Shown: piece by piece, positions 47,965-59,082 of the stretch
Layout: each line of letters starts with the position of its first letter
Position numbering within the stretch: position 1 is the stretch's first letter
Assembly (NCBI RefSeq): GCF_055900595.2
Contig: NZ_CM148325.1
Strand: one strand, 5' to 3'
Length of the DNA stretch: 64,000 bases
Notes under the pieces: model-generated
Told to the model about the DNA's origin: nothing
What the model saw: the letters and a program-made list of their open reading frames with translations, nothing else
Databases searched by the model: none
Position numbers and translations under genes: made by a program

Positions 47965-48858
<894 letters not shown>

Positions 48859-48942: not shown

Positions 48943-49237
48943 CTGAAGGGCGTCAACCGAAAAATGACCAATGATGGTGAGGAAAAATCAGGGAAGATGA
49001 AAAAAACTCATCTTAATTAGAGGTAATAAAGAGATTTCTTTATAGCGCAATCAACCTCACTCGTTTTGACTGATATACAGGCAACACAACGGCACCTGTT
49101 CTCATTCGAAAAACAACGCCCTGCCACCAGATGGTGATGCTAAAGCATCTGATTCGGCCTGCGCTCTCGTGTAGGCCGAATACAGAATCTGCGAAATCAA
49201 CTGGTAACAAACAGTAGAGTCAACTCAGTGCGTACTT

Positions 49238-50797
49238 TTATTTAATATCTTTCACGCGCATACCGTTGATCTGTTCATCCGTGATGGTGTTACCCGCTTT
49301 AAAGTAATCAACCACCGCGTGATAAACGTAATAACCGCCCGTCGTATTGCGCGCTTTACCCTCGGTAAACGCGGTAAAACCATCTCCACCATCAGCAAGG
49401 AAACTCTGAGTAGCAATGTGGTAAACCGTCGCATCTTCAATCGGTTTGCCATTCAGCGTCAGCGAGATAACCCGCTGACCAACCGGCTTGCTGCTGTCGT
49501 ACTTCATTTCCAGGCCTTTCGATACCTGTAAAACGCCATTACTTAAACTTGCGCCGTGTTCCATCAAACCGCGTAATTGTTTACCCGTGAGTTCCATCGT
49601 CACCAGTTCGTTGGGGAACGGGAAGGTACTGATGACGCCACCCATCGTAATTGCACCCGCCGGGATCTCATTGCGAATCCCACCAGAGTTGGTTAACGCC
49701 AACTGGGTATTTTTACCCGCCGCTACCAGTAAAGCGTCCGCCGCCAGGTTCCCCAGGGATGCCGATTCACCATAGGCACGTTTTAATTCAACTGGCGATT
49801 GCGCCACCGTTTGCTGCACGACTTCATCCAGCTTTTTATTCCAACTATCAATCACCTGTTTTGTTTGCGCATCGGGCTTCCACTCGTCGGCGTAAAGGGT
49901 TTTAAGCTCGAAGTTTTTCACCGTAAAAGTGTGCGGTTTCTCTTTGTAGTCGAGAACCAGTTTACCCACATCAATCCCACCGCTGTCAGTGGAGAGGATG
50001 AGCGTATTGCCGACTTTAATCGGTTCCGGCGTACCCACATGTGCATGCCCGGTGATCAAAATATCCAGCCCTTTCACCTGACTTGCCGTCTGAATATCTT
50101 TATCCAGTGCGCGGCGCACATCTGTGCCCCCCATACTGGACTGGCGGGCCGGAACACCTTCGTGAATCAGCGCAACGGTCAAATCAACCTTGCCTTTGAG
50201 TTCATCGATATAACGTTGTAGCCATTTAATTTCATCACGCGCCTCAATACCCACTCGCGTTGCCGCAGATACCGTATCATTAAAGGCAAATACACCGTGC
50301 AAACCTATAACACCAATTTTCACGCCGTCTTTTTCAATAATGGTATATGGCTTATCCCAGAATGATTTACTGCTGTTCTGATAAAAAACATTACCCTGCA
50401 CAATCGGGAATTGTGCCTGACTCAACTGTAATAACGTATTGTCCCAGCCGTGATCAAATTCATGATTACCTATAGTGGCCGCATCGAACGGCATGGTATT
50501 CATAATATCGATAATCGCCTTGCCTTTAGTCAGGCTGCTGATATACGGCCCGGTAAAATAGTCACCCGCATCAAAAAACCAGGTCGCTTTGTTTTTAGCT
50601 TTTTCTTGTTTAACAAGCGTAGTGATATTTGCCCAGCCGCCAATATCCCGTTTACCCTCAGCAATCCACGGCACTTTATAGGGCTCTACATGTGCGTGGA
50701 GGTCATTGGTATAAATAATGGTGACATCTTTGGCGCAGGCCCAAAACGGCAGTGTTAATGCGATACCCGCAGCAAGCATTTTAATTTTCATAAACAA
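49238..50797 (-). CDS. secreted 5'-nucleotidase / UDP-sugar hydrolase family metallophosphoesterase (UshA-like), paralog 1
   Basis: 519-aa ORF with a signal peptide ([18 protein letters not shown]), calcineurin-like motifs ([30 protein letters not shown]) and a C-terminal 5'-nucleotidase domain with the FPF nucleobase clamp. Start may be M3 or M7. Confidence 0.8.
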
Positions 50798-50923
50798 TCC
50801 CTTCCAGTGAGATAAAGGATTGCTACATTACGTTCTGAAAGGCTTTTTTATGTGAGAATACTCACATCCAGAGGCAATAACTGTAGGACAAAATCGACGA
50901 CCTTATGAAATCGTTGGTGATAT

Positions 50924-52051
50924 ATGTCAAATCTGTTTGCGATTAATGTCTGTAAAACGTTCGGTTGTCGAAATTTGGGATTGGCCTCATCGGAAGATTA
51001 CAGTTGGCCAGACTATAAACTGGGTTTTCCGGCACTGCACTGCCAGGCATGCGGAAGTTACCCCCCTTTGTTTGATGAACAACAATTTCGTGACTGGTTG
51101 TCAGTTCACATGACTGCGTGTGCCATAGAAACAGGGCATTTTTGTCCATCATGCTATTGTAAAGAAAAGATTTTTTATGGCCACAACCCGCATGGAACAC
51201 AACGCGTTCAATGCCGTTCATGCAAAAAAGTCTGGACTCCGAAACAGCAGCCAGCAAGAGAAATTACGTATCCCCAGTCCATTGAAACCGTTCAACTGTT
51301 CATGCCCTTTCAAGGAGCCAGCGCACTACAAAAGCTCTATGTTTTAGTCAGTCTTGACGCCACTCGTGGCAACATCCTTCATCTCTCCACGAATTATACG
51401 CAACATCAGACAGGAGACAGTCTGCGGTACAGTTACAGAGGCAATACAGAACCAACTGAGCACCATAGCGATATTGTGCAGAGGGTAGATATGCGTGAAG
51501 CGCAATTCTTGCGCCGGAGCCAGTTCGATGAAATTCAGTATGGCAGTGCTGTGCTCAAGCGCAATGGCAAGGGAGCCATACTACGCCCGGTTATCACGGC
51601 TCACGGGCATTTCAGAATACTGAAAATCCGCTTTCCACATGTCAAAACGCATATCATTTCACACGAATGTTTTCTGAGAGGCGCAATTATTACAGCCTGG
51701 GCAGATCAGTTCCGCCAACAACAAGGCGAACTTTGGTTCGTAGAAGAAGAAATCAGCGACCGTAACGCTGATATTCCCTGGCATTTTCAGGGAACGACAT
51801 ACCATGGTTGGTGGCAAAATCAGTGGCAACGCTGGGGGCAGGGGAATAACAGCAAGATGGTCTGCCTGCTCACAGGAGTCTCCTTAGAAAGGGGCGCAAA
51901 TGTTTCTCTGGCAACCAGTCGTTGCTTTATCACATGGCTGACAGACCAACACGACTTTACCCAAAGCGCGTTATTATCCGCAGGTCGCGTAACGAAAATG
52001 CTGACCTCACTGGCGTTAAAATACAATGAATCGCTCACTCCATCTTGTTAG
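50924..52051 (+). CDS. hypothetical Cys-rich protein with a transposase-type zinc-ribbon motif
   Basis: 375-aa ORF. N-terminal Cys pairs (CKTFGC, HCQACG, FCPSCYC, QCRSCKKVW); the segment CPSC...GTQRVQCRSCKKVW resembles the IS1/IS1595 transposase zinc ribbon. No recognisable DDE triad or HTH seen by eye. Confidence 0.5.
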   Translation: MSNLFAINVCKTFGCRNLGLASSEDYSWPDYKLGFPALHCQACGSYPPLFDEQQFRDWLSVHMTACAIETGHFCPSCYCKEKIFYGHNPHGTQRVQCRSCKKVWTPKQQPAREITYPQSIETVQLFMPFQGASALQKLYVLVSLDATRGNILHLSTNYTQHQTGDSLRYSYRGNTEPTEHHSDIVQRVDMREAQFLRRSQFDEIQYGSAVLKRNGKGAILRPVITAHGHFRILKIRFPHVKTHIISHECFLRGAIITAWADQFRQQQGELWFVEEEISDRNADIPWHFQGTTYHGWWQNQWQRWGQGNNSKMVCLLTGVSLERGANVSLATSRCFITWLTDQHDFTQSALLSAGRVTKMLTSLALKYNESLTPSC

Positions 52052-52280
52052 TCAATACACTCGACAAACGACCATAAATTAATGGGATCACTATTTCTCA
52101 TTTAATTAAATATATGAATGTATGACTGAAAAATATAATCACAGTCAATGTTTAATTAATAACATTATTTGTTACTAAGATCACATAATACTTTCCTGAC
52201 CTATGCTTACATAAAAATAAGACACGGAGTTCCTTTTATTTAAATAATTCAACCAATGTAACAACCCCTATCAAGGAGGG

Positions 52281-53834
52281 ATGATGAGAACTGTATTTAC
52301 GACTTTATCAGTCATATTCAGCGTGATGTTTTCTCACAGTATACTAGCTCAGGACGTTACTATTTATTATACGAATGATATTCACGCACATGTCAATCCG
52401 GCAAAAATTCCCGCTGTTGATAAGAACAGACTTGTAGGTGGTATGGCTAATATTGCAGGCATCGTTAATGAAGCGAAGAAAAAAAACAAAGATGTCTTTT
52501 TCTTTGATGCAGGCGACTATTTTACCGGTCCGTATATCAGTACCCTGACCAAAGGTGAAGCTATTATTGATATCATGAACACCATGCCCTTTGATGCGGT
52601 GTCCGTTGGTAATCACGAGTTCGATCACGGCGTGCCCAATATGGTATCTCAGTTATCAAAAGCAAAATTCCCCATTCTGCTGGGAAATATTTACTACACC
52701 GATACAAATAAACCAGTTTGGGATCATCCGTGGACTATTATCGAAAAAGATGGTTTAAAGATTGGTGTGATTGGATTGCATGGTGCATTCGCTTTCTATG
52801 ATACAGTCGCGGCAAAAGCACGTGAAGGCGTAGAAGCCAGAGACGAAATTAAATATTTAAATAAAGCACTTGCAGAATTAAAAGGTAAAGTCGACATTAC
52901 CGTTTTGCTAATTCACGAAGGTGTTCCGGCGCGTCAATCAAGCTTTGGTAGTAAAGATGTGGAGCGGCTACTACAGGCAGATATTGAGACAGCTAAAAAA
53001 GTGAATGGTGTTGATGTCTTAATTACCGGTCACGCACATGTCGGAACACCGCAACCAATAAAAGTTAATAACACATTAATTGTATCTACCGATGCATACG
53101 GCACCGACATCGGAAAACTTGTGCTTGATTACAATCCGAAAACGAAGAAAATTGATAGTTATAATGGTGAGTTAATCACCATCTTCGCAGATCAATTTAA
53201 ACCTGACACCATCGTTCAAAATACTATCGATAAATGGAGTGCAAAGCTTAACAAAATAACACAGGAAGTTGTCGGCCATTCTCCCGTAGTTTTAACACGT
53301 GAGTATGGCAGTTCTTCTTCTACCGGTAACCTTATTCTTGATGCAATGATGGAAAAAACACCAGATGCCATTGCCGGATTTCAAAATAGCGGTGGGATGC
53401 GAGCTGATTTTCCTAAAGGTGATATCACGCTGGGAGATGTTATTAGCACATTCCCCTTTAATAATGACCTCATCGAGATGGATTTGACGGGCCGCGATCT
53501 CAAATCGTTGATGACGCATGCAACCAATCTAACTAACGGTGTGTTACAGGTTTCAAAAAGCGTTGCGGTTGTCTATGACAGCAAAAAACCACTGAACCAA
53601 CGGTTAATCTCTTTCACCATTAACGGCAAACCCGTGGAAGATAATCAAACATATCGTATTGTCACGCACTCCTTTTGTGCCAGTGGTGGTGACGGTTTTG
53701 AAGCATTTTTGAATGGAAAAAATGTGAAGACGATACCGGGAACAACCTCGGCGGAATCTATCATCGATTATTTCAAAAATCATAAACCTGTCACCCCAGA
53801 CTTAACTAAACGAGTAATGGACGTCGCCAAATAA
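52281..53834 (+). CDS. secreted 5'-nucleotidase family metallophosphoesterase (UshA-like), paralog 2
   Basis: 517-aa ORF with a signal peptide (MMRTVFTTLSVIFSVMFSHSILA-QD) and the same catalytic motifs (YTNDIHAH, GDYFTGP, GNHEFD, GHAHVG, TFPF); the most divergent of the three copies. Confidence 0.8.
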   Translation: MMRTVFTTLSVIFSVMFSHSILAQDVTIYYTNDIHAHVNPAKIPAVDKNRLVGGMANIAGIVNEAKKKNKDVFFFDAGDYFTGPYISTLTKGEAIIDIMNTMPFDAVSVGNHEFDHGVPNMVSQLSKAKFPILLGNIYYTDTNKPVWDHPWTIIEKDGLKIGVIGLHGAFAFYDTVAAKAREGVEARDEIKYLNKALAELKGKVDITVLLIHEGVPARQSSFGSKDVERLLQADIETAKKVNGVDVLITGHAHVGTPQPIKVNNTLIVSTDAYGTDIGKLVLDYNPKTKKIDSYNGELITIFADQFKPDTIVQNTIDKWSAKLNKITQEVVGHSPVVLTREYGSSSSTGNLILDAMMEKTPDAIAGFQNSGGMRADFPKGDITLGDVISTFPFNNDLIEMDLTGRDLKSLMTHATNLTNGVLQVSKSVAVVYDSKKPLNQRLISFTINGKPVEDNQTYRIVTHSFCASGGDGFEAFLNGKNVKTIPGTTSAESIIDYFKNHKPVTPDLTKRVMDVAK

Positions 53835-53868
53835 AATATCATTTATCAGTCTATTTATTTAACAAGGA

Positions 53869-55494
53869 ATGCGAATGAAAACAGTGCAGCGTACTTTACT
53901 TGCCGCAACATTGCTGACTATTTTTTCGGTCTCAGCCATGGCGCAGGATGTCACGATTATTTATACCAATGATCTTCACGCTCATGTGGATTCTTATAAA
54001 GTGCCGTATATCGCAGACGGAAAACGCGACATTGGCGGCTTTGCCAATATATCTACTTTAGTAAAACAAGAGAAAGCGAAAAATAAAGCCACCTTTTATT
54101 TTGATGCTGGAGACTATTTCACCGGCCCTTATATCAGCAGTCTGACAAAGGGCGAAGCAATAATTGACATTATGAATACCATGCCTTTTGACGCAGTATC
54201 AATCGGTAATCATGAGTTTGACCATGGCTGGGATAATGCCCTGCGACAATTAAGCAAAGCGAATTTTCCTGTTTTATTGGGCAATGTTTATCATAAAGAG
54301 AGTGAGAAACCCTTCTGGAACAAGCCCTACACCATCCTGGAAAAAGATGGCATCAAGATTGGTATTATTGGGCTACACGGCGTATTTGCATTTAATGATA
54401 CGGTCTCGGAGCTCTCTCTCCAGGGACTCGATAATGACAATAATAACCGCTTTGATAAATCTTCCGAGACCCTTAAGAATCAGGGGATTGAAGCACGTGA
54501 TGAAGTGAAGTATTTGCAGCATTATATCGACGAGTTACGTGATAAGGTTGACCTCACTGTGGCGCTGGTTCATGAAGGCGTTCCGGCGCGTCAGTCCAGC
54601 ATTGGCAATACAGATGTTAGACGCGCTCTTGATAAAGATATTCAAACCGCTAGCAAGGTGAAAGGATTGGATATTCTGATTACCGGGCATGCCCACGTCG
54701 GAACGCCAGAGCCAATCAAAGTCGGCAACACCTTAATCCTTTCAACTGATAGTGGCGGTATCGATATTGGTAAATTAGTCCTTGATGTCAACCCTACAGC
54801 TCGTACCCATAAAATGAAGAGCTTTGAGCTGAAAACAGTTTATGCCGATGAATGGATACCCGATCCAACGACACAAAAAGTTATCAATGGCTGGAATAAA
54901 AAACTGGCGGATATTGTACGCCAACCAGTGGGTGAATCATCGATTGCATTAACTCGCGCCTATGGTGAGTCATCGCAACTAGGCAACCTGTTTACCGATG
55001 CAATGCTTGTCGCTGCTCCGACTGCACAGATTGCATTGATAAACTCCGGCAGCTTACGTGCGGATATAAATGCAGGCACGATTACCTTTGGCGACATTAC
55101 CAGTACATTCCCCTTCAAGAATGAACTTACTGAAATGGATCTCAGCGGTAAGGATCTGCGTAACCTACTGGAACACGGGGCATCGCTTACCAATGGCATC
55201 CTGCAAATGTCAAAAGGCGCAGAAATGCGCTATACCCCGCAGAAACCAGTAGGTCAGCGCATAGTATCTTTTAAAATTAATGGTGAAGAGATCGTTGATA
55301 CGAATATTTACCATGTTGCAACAACGACTTTCCTTGCACTGGGGGGCGATGGTTTTCTGGCATTCAAAGAAGGGAAAAATGTTCAGGTCCGCGCCGGAAA
55401 TAACATGTCCGATGTCGTGATCGATTATTTGAAGAAAGGCCACAAGATTACGCCTGCACAGGTAAATGAAATGCGGGTGGACGTTAGCAAATAA
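53869..55494 (+). CDS. secreted 5'-nucleotidase family metallophosphoesterase (UshA-like), paralog 3
   Basis: 541-aa ORF with a signal peptide (...FSVSAMA-QD) and the same motifs; very similar to paralog 1 (roughly three-quarters identical by eye) but with an extra roughly 24-aa Asn/Asp-rich insertion (ELSLQGLDNDNNNRFDKSSETLKNQG). Confidence 0.8.
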   Translation: MRMKTVQRTLLAATLLTIFSVSAMAQDVTIIYTNDLHAHVDSYKVPYIADGKRDIGGFANISTLVKQEKAKNKATFYFDAGDYFTGPYISSLTKGEAIIDIMNTMPFDAVSIGNHEFDHGWDNALRQLSKANFPVLLGNVYHKESEKPFWNKPYTILEKDGIKIGIIGLHGVFAFNDTVSELSLQGLDNDNNNRFDKSSETLKNQGIEARDEVKYLQHYIDELRDKVDLTVALVHEGVPARQSSIGNTDVRRALDKDIQTASKVKGLDILITGHAHVGTPEPIKVGNTLILSTDSGGIDIGKLVLDVNPTARTHKMKSFELKTVYADEWIPDPTTQKVINGWNKKLADIVRQPVGESSIALTRAYGESSQLGNLFTDAMLVAAPTAQIALINSGSLRADINAGTITFGDITSTFPFKNELTEMDLSGKDLRNLLEHGASLTNGILQMSKGAEMRYTPQKPVGQRIVSFKINGEEIVDTNIYHVATTTFLALGGDGFLAFKEGKNVQVRAGNNMSDVVIDYLKKGHKITPAQVNEMRVDVSK

Positions 55495-55504
55495 TAAAAA
55501 AATT

Positions 55505-55540
55505 ATAATGCCATTCATTCACTGAATGGCATTATTTTTC
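55505..55540 (+). terminator. intrinsic terminator after nucleotidase paralog 3
   Basis: Hairpin AATGCCATTCA-TTCAC-TGAATGGCATT followed by ATTTTTC. Confidence 0.7.
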
Positions 55541-55572
55541 TCTAAATCAACAATAAATAATGAGATATATTT

Positions 55573-56433
55573 ATGTGTATAAAAAAGCACGGGATAGCTT
55601 TATCGATTCTATTAATACCTTGCATTGGAAACGCTCAGGAAATTAAAAGTGAGGAAGGCTGGTTACATCAAAGCTTGAATGTCATTGGTCGCACAGACTC
55701 TCGCTTTGGCCCAAGGCTGACTAACGACCTCTACCCTGAATATACTGTAGCAGGAAGAAAAGACTGGTTTGATTTTTATGGTTATGTTGATCTACCAAAA
55801 TTCTTTGGCGTCGGCAGTCACTATGATGTTGGGATCTGGGATGAGGGCTCACCACTATTTACGGAAATAGAACCTCGGTTTTCCATTGACAAATTGACCG
55901 GATTAAATCTTGCGTTCGGCCCTTTTAAAGAATGGTTCATTGCAAACAACTATGTCTATGATATGGGTGACAACCAGTCATCCCGGCAAAGTACATGGTA
56001 TATGGGGCTTGGTACAGATATCGACACGGGTCTACCAATTAAGCTTTCTGCCAATATATACGCCAAGTATCAGTGGCAAAACTATGGTGCCGCTAATGAA
56101 AATGAATGGGACGGATATCGATTCAAAATAAAATATAGCATTCCTCTTACCCATTTATTCGGAGGGCGATTGGTATACAATAGTTTTACTAACTTTGATT
56201 TTGGCTCCGATCTTGCGGACAAATCACACAATAATAAACGAACCAGTAATGCTATTGCTTCAAGCCATATCCTTTCCCTGCTATATGAACACTGGAAATT
56301 TGCATTTACACTACGTTATTTTCACAACGGTGGACAATGGAATGCTGGGGAGAAAGTTAACTTCGGAGATGGTCCATTTGAATTAAAAAACACAGGATGG
56401 GGAACCTATACTACTATTGGTTATCAATTTTAA
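55573..56433 (+). CDS. Tsx-family outer-membrane nucleoside-specific channel (paralog of tsx)
   Basis: 286-aa ORF with a signal peptide ([23 protein letters not shown]). Long blocks match E. coli Tsx as I recall it ([83 protein letters not shown]), and the C-terminal aromatic residue is typical of beta-barrels. Confidence 0.85.
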
Positions 56434-56614
56434 ATCAGGTGATGTTTTAGATATTTTTACTTAATGCCATTTTGTAATTGTCATAAATAACTTCACCATT
56501 CACACTGTGAATTCATCGCTCAACACAAAAGCCCCCTTATTACCGGGGCACTGACCAAAGGCAAAATGACAATCAATCACCACCTCCGCAGGAGGTGGTT
56601 TAGAGGTGACAACA

Positions 56615-56641
56615 AAAGCTGGCAACTGCCAGCTTTTGTTC
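56615..56641. terminator. bidirectional intrinsic terminator downstream of metL
   Basis: Perfect palindrome AACAAAAGCTGGCA-ACT-GCCAGCTTTTGTT immediately 3' of the metL stop; a second hairpin ACCACCTCC-GCA-GGAGGTGGT lies at 56578..56598. Confidence 0.75.
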
Positions 56642-56649
56642 AATAATCA

Positions 56650-59082
56650 CTACAACAACTGCGCCAGACGGTTAATATCCGACTGAATCGCCCCAGCGGT
56701 GACGTCGCGCCCTGCACCTGGCCCGCGGATCACCAGCGGGTTGTCGCGATACCAGCGGCTTTCGATGGCAAAGACGTTATCGCACGGTAGTAGTGATGCC
56801 AGCGGATGGTCTTCACGCACCGCTTCCACGCCCACTCGCGCTTTGCCGTTGGCATCGAAACGCGCCACGTAGCGCAACACCAGCCCCATTTCACGGGCCG
56901 CTTCCAACCGTTGTACCATCTGCTCATTAAGTTCATCGCCATTTTCAAAGAAATGGTCGATGCTTCCACCTTCGCAATGGGTTGGCACCAGTGATTCAAC
57001 ACGCACCTGGTCCGGTTCAATGTTGTAACCCGCTTCACGCGCCAGAATCACCAGCTTGCGCATCACATCTTTGCCGGAGAGGTCATCACGCGGGTCAGGT
57101 TCAGTTAAGCCCTGCTGCCACGCCTGATCCACCAGCTCAGTAAACGGCACGCTACCGTCGAATTGCAGGAACAGCCAGGAGAGCGTGCCGGAGAAGATCC
57201 CGCTGATCGACAAAATAGTGTCGCCGCTGTCGATCAGATCGCGCACGGTATGGTTGATCGGCAAACCTGCGCCGACGGTGGCGTTGTATAGCCAGTGACG
57301 CCCGGTTTTTTCGAACGCGTCGTGGATCTGGCGATATTTATTGCTGTCGCTCGCTCCCGCCAGTTTGTTGGCACTGATGACGTGGAAACCGTGGCTGGCG
57401 AAATCGAGATACTGATCAGCAAGCTGCTGGCTGGCAGTAACGTCCAGCACAACTAAATCATCATACGGATGGGCACGCATCCACAGGAATAGCGACTCTT
57501 CATCCTGTTCGACGGCTTCATCATTAAAGAAGGCTAGCGCACGGCTGGCGTCCAGCCCGTCATAGCTCAACAGGCTGCGACGGCTGTCCACCACGCCTGC
57601 CAGCACAAATTCAAAGCCGGTGCGCGCCGAGAGCGTGCTCTGCTCACGGGCGAACAGTTCCAGCCAGCGGGAACCGATATTGCCCTTACCGAACAATACC
57701 AGGCCGATGCGTTTTTCTGCGCGGAAGACGGACTGATGCAGCCCCTGAATCAGGCTTTCGGTCGGGCCGGTGCGCAGTACTGCCACCAGGCTGATGCCGT
57801 CATCGGACTGCCAGGTAAACTCGACCGGCTGGCCTTTCAGTTGCTGCCAGAAGCGGTGGCAATGCAGCGGGTTACGGGTGACGCCCGCCCCAACCATCGC
57901 CACCAGCGCCAGCCCCTGACGCAGACGCAGTTCGCCGGGTAATCCTGCTTCGTCGAGGATTTTCAGCGCACTGTCGGCCACTTCCGAGGTGTAGCAAAAT
58001 TGCAGCAACTGGCGATCGTTATGCACGCCAACTGCCAGTGGGCGCACCTGAGCACGTTTCAGGATTTGGTCGATCTCTTTATGCGCCAGTTTAAAATCCT
58101 GACTGGCGGGCACCTGAAACTCAATCAAACAGACATCATCGTGGCTGGTGACAATACGCGCGCCAGTACCTGAGGCCAGCACGCGTTCAATGCGCGTGGA
58201 ACCTTGATCCGGCGTGTAGCTACAGCGCAGCTGCAGGTCGATTTCGCTGCCAGAAACTGGCTGTAAAGTACGGGCGTGAAGAACGGGGGCCGCCAGACGC
58301 GCCAGTTCGCTGGCTTCATCCAGACGCAGCAACGGCAGCAGGCAGGCGTCTTTCACTTTACGCGGGTCGGCGCTATATACCCCGGCGACATCGCTCCAGA
58401 TGGTTACGCGGGAAACTCCCGCCAGCGCACCGATTTGTGTCGCGGAATAGTCGGAACCGTTACGCCCCAGCAGCACCGTTTCACCGGCGTTGTTGCGGCT
58501 GATAAATCCGGTCACCACCAGGCGTTTGCCCGGATGTTGCACCAGTAGTTGTTGCAGCAATGGGTACGAAAGGCCTTCATCAACCTGTGGTTGCGCGGCA
58601 CGTTCAGCGCGTAAAAACTCGCGGGCATCAAGCCAGGCCGCAGGCAATCCTTGTTGATTAAGCACCGCAGACATTAAGCGTGCCGACCACACTTCCCCGT
58701 GGCCCACCACTTCTGCATACACCGCATCATTAATACCGCTGTCGAGCAGCGCCGCGAGGCGTTCCAGATCGCTGACAAAGGCGCTAATGAGGCTATCGGC
58801 TTCTTCGGCGGGTAGCAGGCCGCTAATCAGATCGCACTGATAGCGACGCAGCGTTTGTTGAACCTGATGCGCAGAGAGACGATCGGCCTGGCTTAGTTTC
58901 AACCAGTTAATCAACTGGTTAGTGGTGCTACCGGCGGCGGAAACCACCATCATATCGTCAGGCTGAGAGTACTCCGCCATAATGCCCGCGACACGCAAAT
59001 AACACTTCACATCAGCCAGACTACTGCCACCAAATTTATGCAGTTGACGACCTTTCGCCCCTGCCTGCGCAATCACACTCAT
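56650..59082 (-). CDS. metL: bifunctional aspartokinase II / homoserine dehydrogenase II
   Basis: 810-aa ORF (MSVIAQAGAKGRQLHKFGGSSLADVKCYLRVAGIMAEY...) with an N-terminal aspartokinase domain and a C-terminal homoserine dehydrogenase domain. Confidence 0.95.
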   Translation of the reverse strand: MSVIAQAGAKGRQLHKFGGSSLADVKCYLRVAGIMAEYSQPDDMMVVSAAGSTTNQLINWLKLSQADRLSAHQVQQTLRRYQCDLISGLLPAEEADSLISAFVSDLERLAALLDSGINDAVYAEVVGHGEVWSARLMSAVLNQQGLPAAWLDAREFLRAERAAQPQVDEGLSYPLLQQLLVQHPGKRLVVTGFISRNNAGETVLLGRNGSDYSATQIGALAGVSRVTIWSDVAGVYSADPRKVKDACLLPLLRLDEASELARLAAPVLHARTLQPVSGSEIDLQLRCSYTPDQGSTRIERVLASGTGARIVTSHDDVCLIEFQVPASQDFKLAHKEIDQILKRAQVRPLAVGVHNDRQLLQFCYTSEVADSALKILDEAGLPGELRLRQGLALVAMVGAGVTRNPLHCHRFWQQLKGQPVEFTWQSDDGISLVAVLRTGPTESLIQGLHQSVFRAEKRIGLVLFGKGNIGSRWLELFAREQSTLSARTGFEFVLAGVVDSRRSLLSYDGLDASRALAFFNDEAVEQDEESLFLWMRAHPYDDLVVLDVTASQQLADQYLDFASHGFHVISANKLAGASDSNKYRQIHDAFEKTGRHWLYNATVGAGLPINHTVRDLIDSGDTILSISGIFSGTLSWLFLQFDGSVPFTELVDQAWQQGLTEPDPRDDLSGKDVMRKLVILAREAGYNIEPDQVRVESLVPTHCEGGSIDHFFENGDELNEQMVQRLEAAREMGLVLRYVARFDANGKARVGVEAVREDHPLASLLPCDNVFAIESRWYRDNPLVIRGPGAGRDVTAGAIQSDINRLAQLL

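Follow-up and report, generated by a model that had tools for sequence, protein, structure and literature searches.

tsx2, a second Tsx-type channel gene beside three nucleotidase genes in an accessory metF-metL island of Escherichia coli

Does Escherichia coli carry a second outer-membrane channel of the Tsx type, and does such a channel belong functionally with nucleotidases encoded next to it? The question is raised by an open reading frame, here called tsx2, at 55573-56433 on the plus strand of a stretch of E. coli DNA (64,000 nucleotides of contig NZ_CM148325.1, assembly GCF_055900595.2; this whole stretch is referred to as the window). An earlier account made from the letters of the DNA, here called the sequence-only reading, had described the frame as a second Tsx gene located away from the usual tsx locus, sharing long identical blocks with Tsx, differing from it in segments that would be surface loops, and coupled to secreted nucleotidases. 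We find that tsx2 is an intact paralog of tsx. We consider it reasonably probable that its product is a working outer-membrane channel of an accessory gene set for nucleotide/nucleoside salvage that is patchily distributed in Enterobacteriaceae.

The tsx2 frame runs from ATG to TAA and encodes 286 amino acids (aa) without an internal stop. Its product matched the NCBIfam model NF011686 'Tsx' with 491.8 bits (cut-off 311) over profile positions 6-289 of 289, and the Pfam family Channel_Tsx (PF03502) over positions 4-244 of 244 (E=5.6e-70). The alignment with the crystal-structure sequence 1TLW (E=1.4e-114) was broken by a single internal gap of 5 residues, and the long identical blocks described earlier were recovered as uninterrupted identical runs of 18 and 26 aa. 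An AlphaFold2 model built from 45 homologs predicted 12 strands (predicted local distance difference test, pLDDT, 85; predicted template modelling score, pTM, 0.81), and Foldseek placed this predicted structure on 1TLW with a target-normalised TM of 0.92-0.93 and a root-mean-square deviation of 1.4-1.6 Å. The protein is a member of a well-known family and, by its predicted fold, a Tsx-type 12-stranded channel. Its N-terminus aligns with the Sec leader of Tsx, from which we infer the cleavage site (Table 1), and its C-terminus, ...TIGYQF, is an aromatic outer-membrane insertion signal (beta-signal) with the counterpart ...GYNF in Tsx.

In K-12, canonical tsx (b0411) lies between yajD and yajI, and it was found in 5419 of the 5426 complete E. 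coli genomes that underlie all genome counts given here. The paralog was present in 660 of them (about one in eight), in single copy and always chromosomal. Genomes carrying tsx2 showed two Tsx-like places each, and strain 2D holds a 100%-identical copy of tsx2 together with canonical tsx. Because canonical tsx lies elsewhere, at yajD/yajI, and the island genomes show two Tsx-like places, tsx2 is a true second copy, as the sequence-only reading had it. The possibility that tsx2 is canonical tsx at its usual locus was ruled out by its site, between nucC and metL, and by the presence of both genes in carriers.

The gene is not a pseudogene. Between tsx2 and its ortholog in Citrobacter enshiensis (85% aa identity), the ratio of nonsynonymous to synonymous divergence (dN/dS) was 0.049; for the same species pair it was 0.043-0.058 in the neighbouring nucleotidase genes, 0.015 in metF and 0.029 in metL. 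The gene is under purifying selection, and at least 80% of it is retained in 658 of the 660 carriers. Two E. coli alleles, that of the window (WP_000334959.1) and that of strain MS 57-2 (WP_000275563.1), differ at six aa, five of them within the first 29 residues; beyond the N-terminus (signal peptide and start of the mature protein), the lone difference is H194N. In strain CFT073 the gene is c4894 (C_RS23130). The RefSeq record of strain SMS-3-5 (NC_010498.1; locus L001, 10001-10846) flags an identical tsx2 as 'missing C-terminus', a pseudogene ending 15 nt early. The intact WP_000334959.1 is annotated in two other genomes whose DNA is 100% identical, and the C-terminus is the same in the window allele and in the MS 57-2 allele, which is annotated as intact. 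The flag is an annotation inconsistency. With a complete frame, a dN/dS of 0.049 and identical DNA annotated as intact elsewhere, a pseudogene was rejected.

Comparison with Tsx residue by residue bears on what the channel may do. Over mature K-12 Tsx, 170 of 265 positions are identical in tsx2 (64% global identity). Six extracellular loops were assigned from the model strands and three experimental anchors, namely F27/G28/R32, which mark a surface loop, and 198-207 and N249/N254, which mark the phage-receptor area. Identity was highest in periplasmic turns (72%), followed by strands (68%), and lowest in extracellular loops (55%), and the centre of the protein, from b6 to b8 with L4 included, is almost unchanged. 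The expectation that the differences would correspond to surface loops was partly right: the loops are the more diverged class, but the predicted strands b1, b2 and b11 are merely 36-46% identical. Mutation of F27, G28, S217, G239 or G240 abolishes nucleoside transport by Tsx, according to PMC6499177, and all five residues are identical in the alignment with tsx2.

The residues tied to receptor function have fared differently. According to PMC6499177 and PMC8245764, Lys or Tyr substitutions at N254 impair the T6 receptor function of Tsx, and PMC8245764 reports that R32P confers resistance to T6, U115 and albicidin. In tsx2, A202-I206 are deleted, D198K, G200H and K207N are substituted, and N254P and R32T are present, so that among the receptor-area residues 198-207, N249, N254 and R32 only N249 is reported kept. 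The T6/colicin K receptor determinants of Tsx are not preserved as a set, and the variant segments pointed out in the sequence-only reading do include mapped phage-receptor determinants. Charge differs as well: the mature protein has a net charge of −6 in tsx2 vs. −12 in Tsx, and the last 92 residues, which form L5/L6, one of +1 vs. −5. Between the orthologs of E. coli and C. enshiensis, variation is greatest in L5. Since T6-type determinants differ while the transport residues stay, Tsx2 is predicted to work as a nucleoside channel and probably to escape recognition by T6-type phages that are adapted to canonical Tsx. Compared with K-12 Tsx (PDB 1TLW/1TLY/1TLZ), it shares the protein families, the predicted 12-stranded barrel, the Sec leader and the C-terminal Phe, but lies in the metF-metL island instead of at yajD-yajI, has lost five residues of L5 and is less acidic, and the DeoR/CytR-type tsx promoter region is not evident at tsx2.

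The neighbourhood of tsx2 links it to nucleotide metabolism. As the sequence-only reading stated, it stands next to nucleotidase genes, three of the UshA family (nucA, nucB and nucC), and it is the last of five genes in the insertion, whose order is nucA(-), a gene for a Cys-rich 375-aa protein(+), nucB(+), nucC(+) and tsx2(+), followed by convergent metL. We define the gene set as a Zn-ribbon protein gene divergent from nucA together with, in the same cluster, at least one further UshA-like nucleotidase gene and a Tsx-like gene. Such clusters were found in the E. coli window, C. enshiensis, Enterobacter hormaechei, Klebsiella sp. and Escherichia albertii, at four different loci. The same five genes occupy the same metF/metL site in C. 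enshiensis. In E. hormaechei, at an unrelated site published as genomic module EhGM3 (PMC2801613), a homolog of the 375-aa protein (67%) is divergent from a nucA ortholog (90%), and a nucB ortholog (72%) and then a Tsx-like gene (59%) follow. In Klebsiella sp., the 375-aa homolog is followed by nuc-Tsx-nuc, and near kdsA/prfA in E. albertii by nuc-nuc-nuc-Tsx-nuc. The Tsx gene thus lies between nucleotidase genes in these two species and at the cluster end in E. coli. Because the set turns up at four separate loci among five species, functional coupling of the Tsx paralog to the nucleotidases is supported by this comparative evidence.

The Tsx partners in these modules are of two types, one in E. 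coli and C. enshiensis and one in E. hormaechei, Klebsiella and E. albertii. The latter resemble tsx2 in being a second Tsx beside nucA/nucB/nucC orthologs and a Zn-ribbon protein, but have 293 aa instead of 286 and lie at other sites. Between module types, nucA is 90-91% and nucC 87% identical and the Tsx partner just 58-59%. The net charge is −12 in the E. hormaechei type and −9 in the C. enshiensis protein. A rough neighbour-joining tree put both types outside the canonical enterobacterial Tsx clade. Megablast gave no match to a third Tsx, of the E. albertii type, in E. coli, and a homolog that appeared to be a further Tsx (P0117, 'E. coli 55%') was rejected, being canonical tsx in a frameshift-ridden assembly. 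In C. enshiensis (locus L003, 11292-12275), a gene for an extra 327-aa multi-pass membrane protein lies between the Tsx paralog and metL; the protein has no Pfam family and is absent from E. coli. Divergent accessory Tsx-family genes of other surroundings were seen in Salmonella enterica. One lies with an AdoHcy-hydrolase-like gene and genes for a nucleoside:H+ symporter and a NUDIX protein (locus L020, 4742-8191). The other, whose plasmid-like contig also carries ccdAB and kfrA (locus L021, 3789-8215), stands between genes for a NupC-like permease and a pyrimidine-nucleoside phosphorylase, in a cluster that also holds a GntR gene. Because these other accessory Tsx genes sit in nucleoside-catabolic clusters, recruitment of a Tsx paralog as the outer-membrane gate of nucleoside/nucleotide loci looks like a recurrent theme.

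The enzymes of the island keep all metallophosphatase/metal-binding catalytic motifs and score far under the curated cut-offs for UshA, CpdB and NadN. They share with UshA and CpdB of E. coli and NadN of Haemophilus influenzae the metallophosphatase domain, the 5'-nucleotidase C-terminal domain, the Sec leaders and the metal motifs, but there are three paralogs instead of one. NucA was near-identical to PDB entry 3IVD (1105 bits), so that 3IVD/3IVE give the structure of an ortholog; these entries are reported to be structural-genomics target c4898 of CFT073, solved with uridine and cytidine. All three nucleotidases have leaders of the Sec/signal-peptidase-I kind without a lipobox (...ACA|KD, ...ILA|QD and ...AMA|QD). 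Because of these classical leaders and their membership of the periplasmic UshA/CpdB family, the enzymes are most likely periplasmic, not secreted. The coupling to nucleotidases proposed in the sequence-only reading is supported, in that the gene set recurs across species, but the word 'secreted' is not.

The 375-aa protein matched no Pfam, PADLOC or NCBIfam family. It gave weak matches to Zn-ribbons of the IS1/InsA type, including a weak match to a PHROG transposase Zn-ribbon, and its AlphaFold2 model (pLDDT 40) was unusable. Homologs were found in Enterobacteriaceae only, with 60-67% identity in the C. enshiensis and E. hormaechei sets. Every full or short locus in E. coli, E. albertii, Citrobacter, Pseudocitrobacter, Enterobacter and Klebsiella has the gene, in each case divergent from nucA, and its product may be a transposase-like protein domesticated to regulate the set.

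Table 1. Coordinates of tsx2 and of the other island features within the window.
Feature	Position	Strand	Description	Basis
tsx2	55573..56433	+	Intact Tsx-family outer-membrane channel gene	Open reading frame, NCBIfam, Pfam and PDB matches, model
Sec signal peptide (predicted)	55573..55635	+	21 residues, cleavage before QE	Read from sequence, aligned to Tsx leader
Insertion	49006..56650		7,645 bp, replaces 199 bp of the K-12 metL-metF spacer	BLAST vs. K-12
nucA	49238..50797	-	UshA-family nucleotidase; PGAP start 50791	
CRP-type core TGTGA-N6-TCACA (TGTGAGAATACTCACA)	50851..50866		Perfect; middle of the 126-bp divergent spacer between nucA and the 375-aa gene	
375-aa Cys-rich protein gene	50924..52051	+	Divergent from nucA; in every version of the gene set	
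Palindrome AATGTTTAATTAATAACATT and CRP-like site TGTTACTAAGATCACA	52147..52185		About 100 bp upstream of nucB	
nucB	52281..53834	+	UshA-family metallophosphatase/5'-nucleotidase, Sec leader	
nucC	53869..55494	+	UshA-family metallophosphatase/5'-nucleotidase, Sec leader; PGAP start 53875	
Hairpin and U-run	55505..55535	+	13-bp stem, between nucC stop and tsx2 start	Terminator scan
Bidirectional terminator	56611..56640		Perfect 14-bp inverted repeat between tsx2 and convergent metL	

Regulatory elements in the island were compared with those in C. enshiensis. The core TGTGAGAATACTCACA is the sole perfect CRP core in the window and is conserved in C. enshiensis, as is the second site, TGTTACTAAGATCACA (52170-52185), which has one mismatch to the CRP core. 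With these predicted sites, the nucleotidase promoters look dependent on cyclic AMP-CRP. No CRP-type site was seen upstream of tsx2. The palindrome AATGTTTAATTAATAACATT (52147-52166), perfect and identical in C. enshiensis, is a candidate operator. The hairpin between nucC and tsx2 resembles an intrinsic terminator or attenuator, with a predicted RNA fold of −18.7 kcal/mol (z = −5.05). C. enshiensis retains it, with a compensatory change in one pair, and in the MS 57-2 allele its predicted fold reaches only −8.1 kcal/mol. The left arm shares bases with a perfect TATAAT (55504-55509). This −10 element stands alone, with no credible −35, so that a sigma-70 promoter belonging to tsx2 was not found there. 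The Shine-Dalgarno sequence of tsx2 is weak (GAGA).

Transcription of tsx2 has been recorded in CFT073. RNA-seq of this strain (PMC5956150, Table 1) lists 'tsx, C_RS23130, c4894' among the 25 genes most induced by overproduction of TosR, an AT-tract-binding regulator, with a log2 fold change of 3.3 (about 10-fold) at a false-discovery rate of 8e-9; the nucleotidase genes lie outside this top-25 list. Because the neighbours of metF in CFT073 are C_RS23150 (nucA), C_RS23145 and C_RS23140, C_RS23130 is the paralog, and the TosR-induced 'tsx' is tsx2, not canonical tsx. Co-transcription of tsx2 with the nucleotidases is doubtful, given the hairpin between nucC and tsx2 and a TosR response without the nucleotidases in the top 25. 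The gene, which is AT-rich and TosR-responsive, instead seems to be separately controlled.

The insertion itself has a GC content of 43% vs. 51% in the remaining window. At least 80% of the island was present in 658 of the complete genomes. About 1,186 further genomes hold nucA and the 375-aa gene alone, at about 87% identity, and in the others the metF-metL site is empty, like that of K-12. The island is thus missing from about 66% of genomes and cut down to the two genes in about 22%, and the site has three states: empty, short and full with five genes. In the short form, the 375-aa gene runs at its 3' end into the end of metL, and some genomes have a stop codon inside nucA; this form was also found in Citrobacter freundii and Pseudocitrobacter. 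The loci compared for this site included those of E. coli strains 131 (L012) and 266917_2 (L013), L014 and L017. The island ends showed no direct or inverted terminal repeats and no tRNA or integrase gene, and the island held no Rfam elements. Synonymous divergence from C. enshiensis was about 1.0-1.6 in four of the five island genes, 1.24 in metF and 0.98 in metL. Because the island resembles its flanking genes in this respect, transfer and an old vertical inheritance with repeated losses are equally likely. Between the window strain and MS 57-2, metF (47965-48855) and metL (56650-59082) have a synonymous divergence of about 0.2, and over its 3' 550 bp metL matches K-12 at only 92.7% identity, which suggests recombination or old polymorphism around the island.

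How, then, might the channel and the enzymes work together? In the reading that we favour, the set combines a Tsx-like channel with a Zn-ribbon protein and between two and four UshA-like nucleotidases of the periplasm. The three nucleotidases of the E. coli island would dephosphorylate nucleotides that reach the periplasm, Tsx2 would raise the permeability of the outer membrane for nucleosides and possibly also for substrates of the enzymes, and existing inner-membrane permeases would then import the nucleosides. The channel would probably let nucleosides through and yet not serve as receptor to phages that are adapted to canonical Tsx. Because the products of the enzymes would arise inside the outer membrane, Tsx2 would add to the periplasmic nucleoside pool alongside them, or possibly let in their substrates; a chain in which a secreted enzyme yields nucleosides that the channel imports is not a likely geometry. 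The NadN system is a precedent for entry through the outer membrane, periplasmic cleavage of nucleotides and subsequent uptake of nucleosides. ScrY, BglH, NanC, ChiP and LamB are substrate-specific porins encoded in catabolic operons; as in those systems, a dedicated outer-membrane channel is co-located with enzymes for one class of nutrient, but their barrels are unrelated or distantly related to Tsx2, and the likeness is one of gene co-location.

Several points weigh against this salvage role. A channel is not logically required downstream of periplasmic nucleotidases, because the nucleosides that these release are on the inner side of the outer membrane from the start. Whatever nucA and the 375-aa gene do, they can do it without the channel, since the short-form genomes of E. 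coli, C. freundii and Pseudocitrobacter keep both without a Tsx. The Tsx partner is far less alike between module types than nucA and nucC, so it may have been recruited or replaced independently and not co-inherited. Finally, expression of the window allele may be low, because a strong terminator-like hairpin precedes the gene and its Shine-Dalgarno sequence is weak.

These points leave room for other explanations, of which the strongest, though still rather unlikely in our view, is that Tsx2 is a spare channel. Strains exposed to T6-like phages, colicin K, class III CdiA or albicidin could lose or mutate canonical Tsx, nucleosides would continue to enter through Tsx2, which would go unrecognised by those agents, and the linkage to nucleotidases would be incidental co-carriage on one island. 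The contrast between changed receptor determinants and kept transport residues fits this idea. Tsx is a receptor for T-even phages, CdiA-STECO31 and albicidin (PMC8245764, PMC5371414), evolution across modules has been much faster in the Tsx component than in the enzymes, and the variability of L5 between E. coli and C. enshiensis points the same way. Linkage to nucleotidases at four loci in five species is hard to credit to chance, however, and within E. coli the loops are near-invariant, with five of the six aa differences in the leader and N-terminus, unlike an arms race. Less probable again is a silent or decaying relic: the gene would be left over from an old island, silenced by H-NS, of no use to the cell in nature and on the point of being lost, as has happened in most E. 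coli lineages. The frequent absence or truncation of the island, the occasional nucA pseudogene, the AT-rich region, the hairpin with its U-run, the weak ribosome-binding site and the RefSeq pseudogene flag in SMS-3-5 are all in keeping with decay, and transcript induction was detected only under artificial TosR overexpression. A dN/dS of 0.05 across genera is not what a relic would show, nor are the complete frame, the intact ...GYQF beta-signal and the retention of the gene in nearly all carriers, and the SMS-3-5 flag is the annotation inconsistency described above.

Least probable, and in our judgement very unlikely, is an altered specificity by which Tsx2 would admit phosphorylated substrates (nucleoside monophosphates, NAD-type compounds or other nucleotides) and so feed the periplasmic nucleotidases. 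In its favour, the channel gene of Klebsiella and E. albertii stands within nucleotidase operons, the E. coli protein is less acidic than Tsx, above all over its last 92 residues, and several lumen-proximal strands have diverged. On the other hand, all known nucleoside-transport residues are conserved, nucleotides already pass general porins, and the reduced acidity is absent from the E. hormaechei-type partner and not fully shown by that of C. enshiensis. A nucleoside channel attached to the nucleotidase set remains the reading that we prefer.

The gene is already known: it is annotated in RefSeq, and a 2026 paper (PMC12928451) proposes the same idea. That study describes the locus as 'GR 31 (metL..metF)' of the avian pathogenic strain BEN2908, complete in APEC O1, IMT5155, RS218/UTI89, IHE3034, 78-Pyelo, CFT073 and LF82/NRG857c, with a Tsx-like open reading frame (67% identical to Salmonella Tsx) and three UshA-like ones. 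To this we add the conservation of the gene set across genera, the three-state polymorphism of metF-metL, the contrast between transport and receptor residues, the likely periplasmic location of the enzymes and the recognition that the TosR-induced 'tsx' is the paralog. Expression studies can conflate the two genes, and at least one does (PMC5956150).

The nucleotidase/Tsx set is a candidate nutrient-salvage locus and a modest extension of known biology. Its wider interest lies in canonical Tsx, through which many T-even phages, colicin K, class III contact-dependent inhibition (CDI) toxins and albicidin gain entry, and in the carriers of tsx2, which include the well-studied extraintestinal pathogenic E. 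coli (ExPEC) strains CFT073, UTI89, RS218, APEC O1, BEN2908 and LF82 (PMC12928451). A bolder view, which we hold to be improbable, is that the Zn-ribbon protein, the nucleotidases and the channel make up a self-contained, catabolite-controlled nucleotide-utilisation locus of Enterobacteriaceae, whose Tsx paralog has been retuned to let phosphorylated nucleotides through to the periplasmic enzymes and gives ExPEC lineages a nucleoside route to which phages, colicins and CDI toxins are blind. If this were true, the usual fitness cost of losing canonical Tsx would be removed, and entry might be kept open for antibiotics of the albicidin class. More generally, tsx2 could change how cheaply carrier strains gain resistance to Tsx-dependent phages, and it could affect whether loss of tsx truly blocks albicidin-type drugs.

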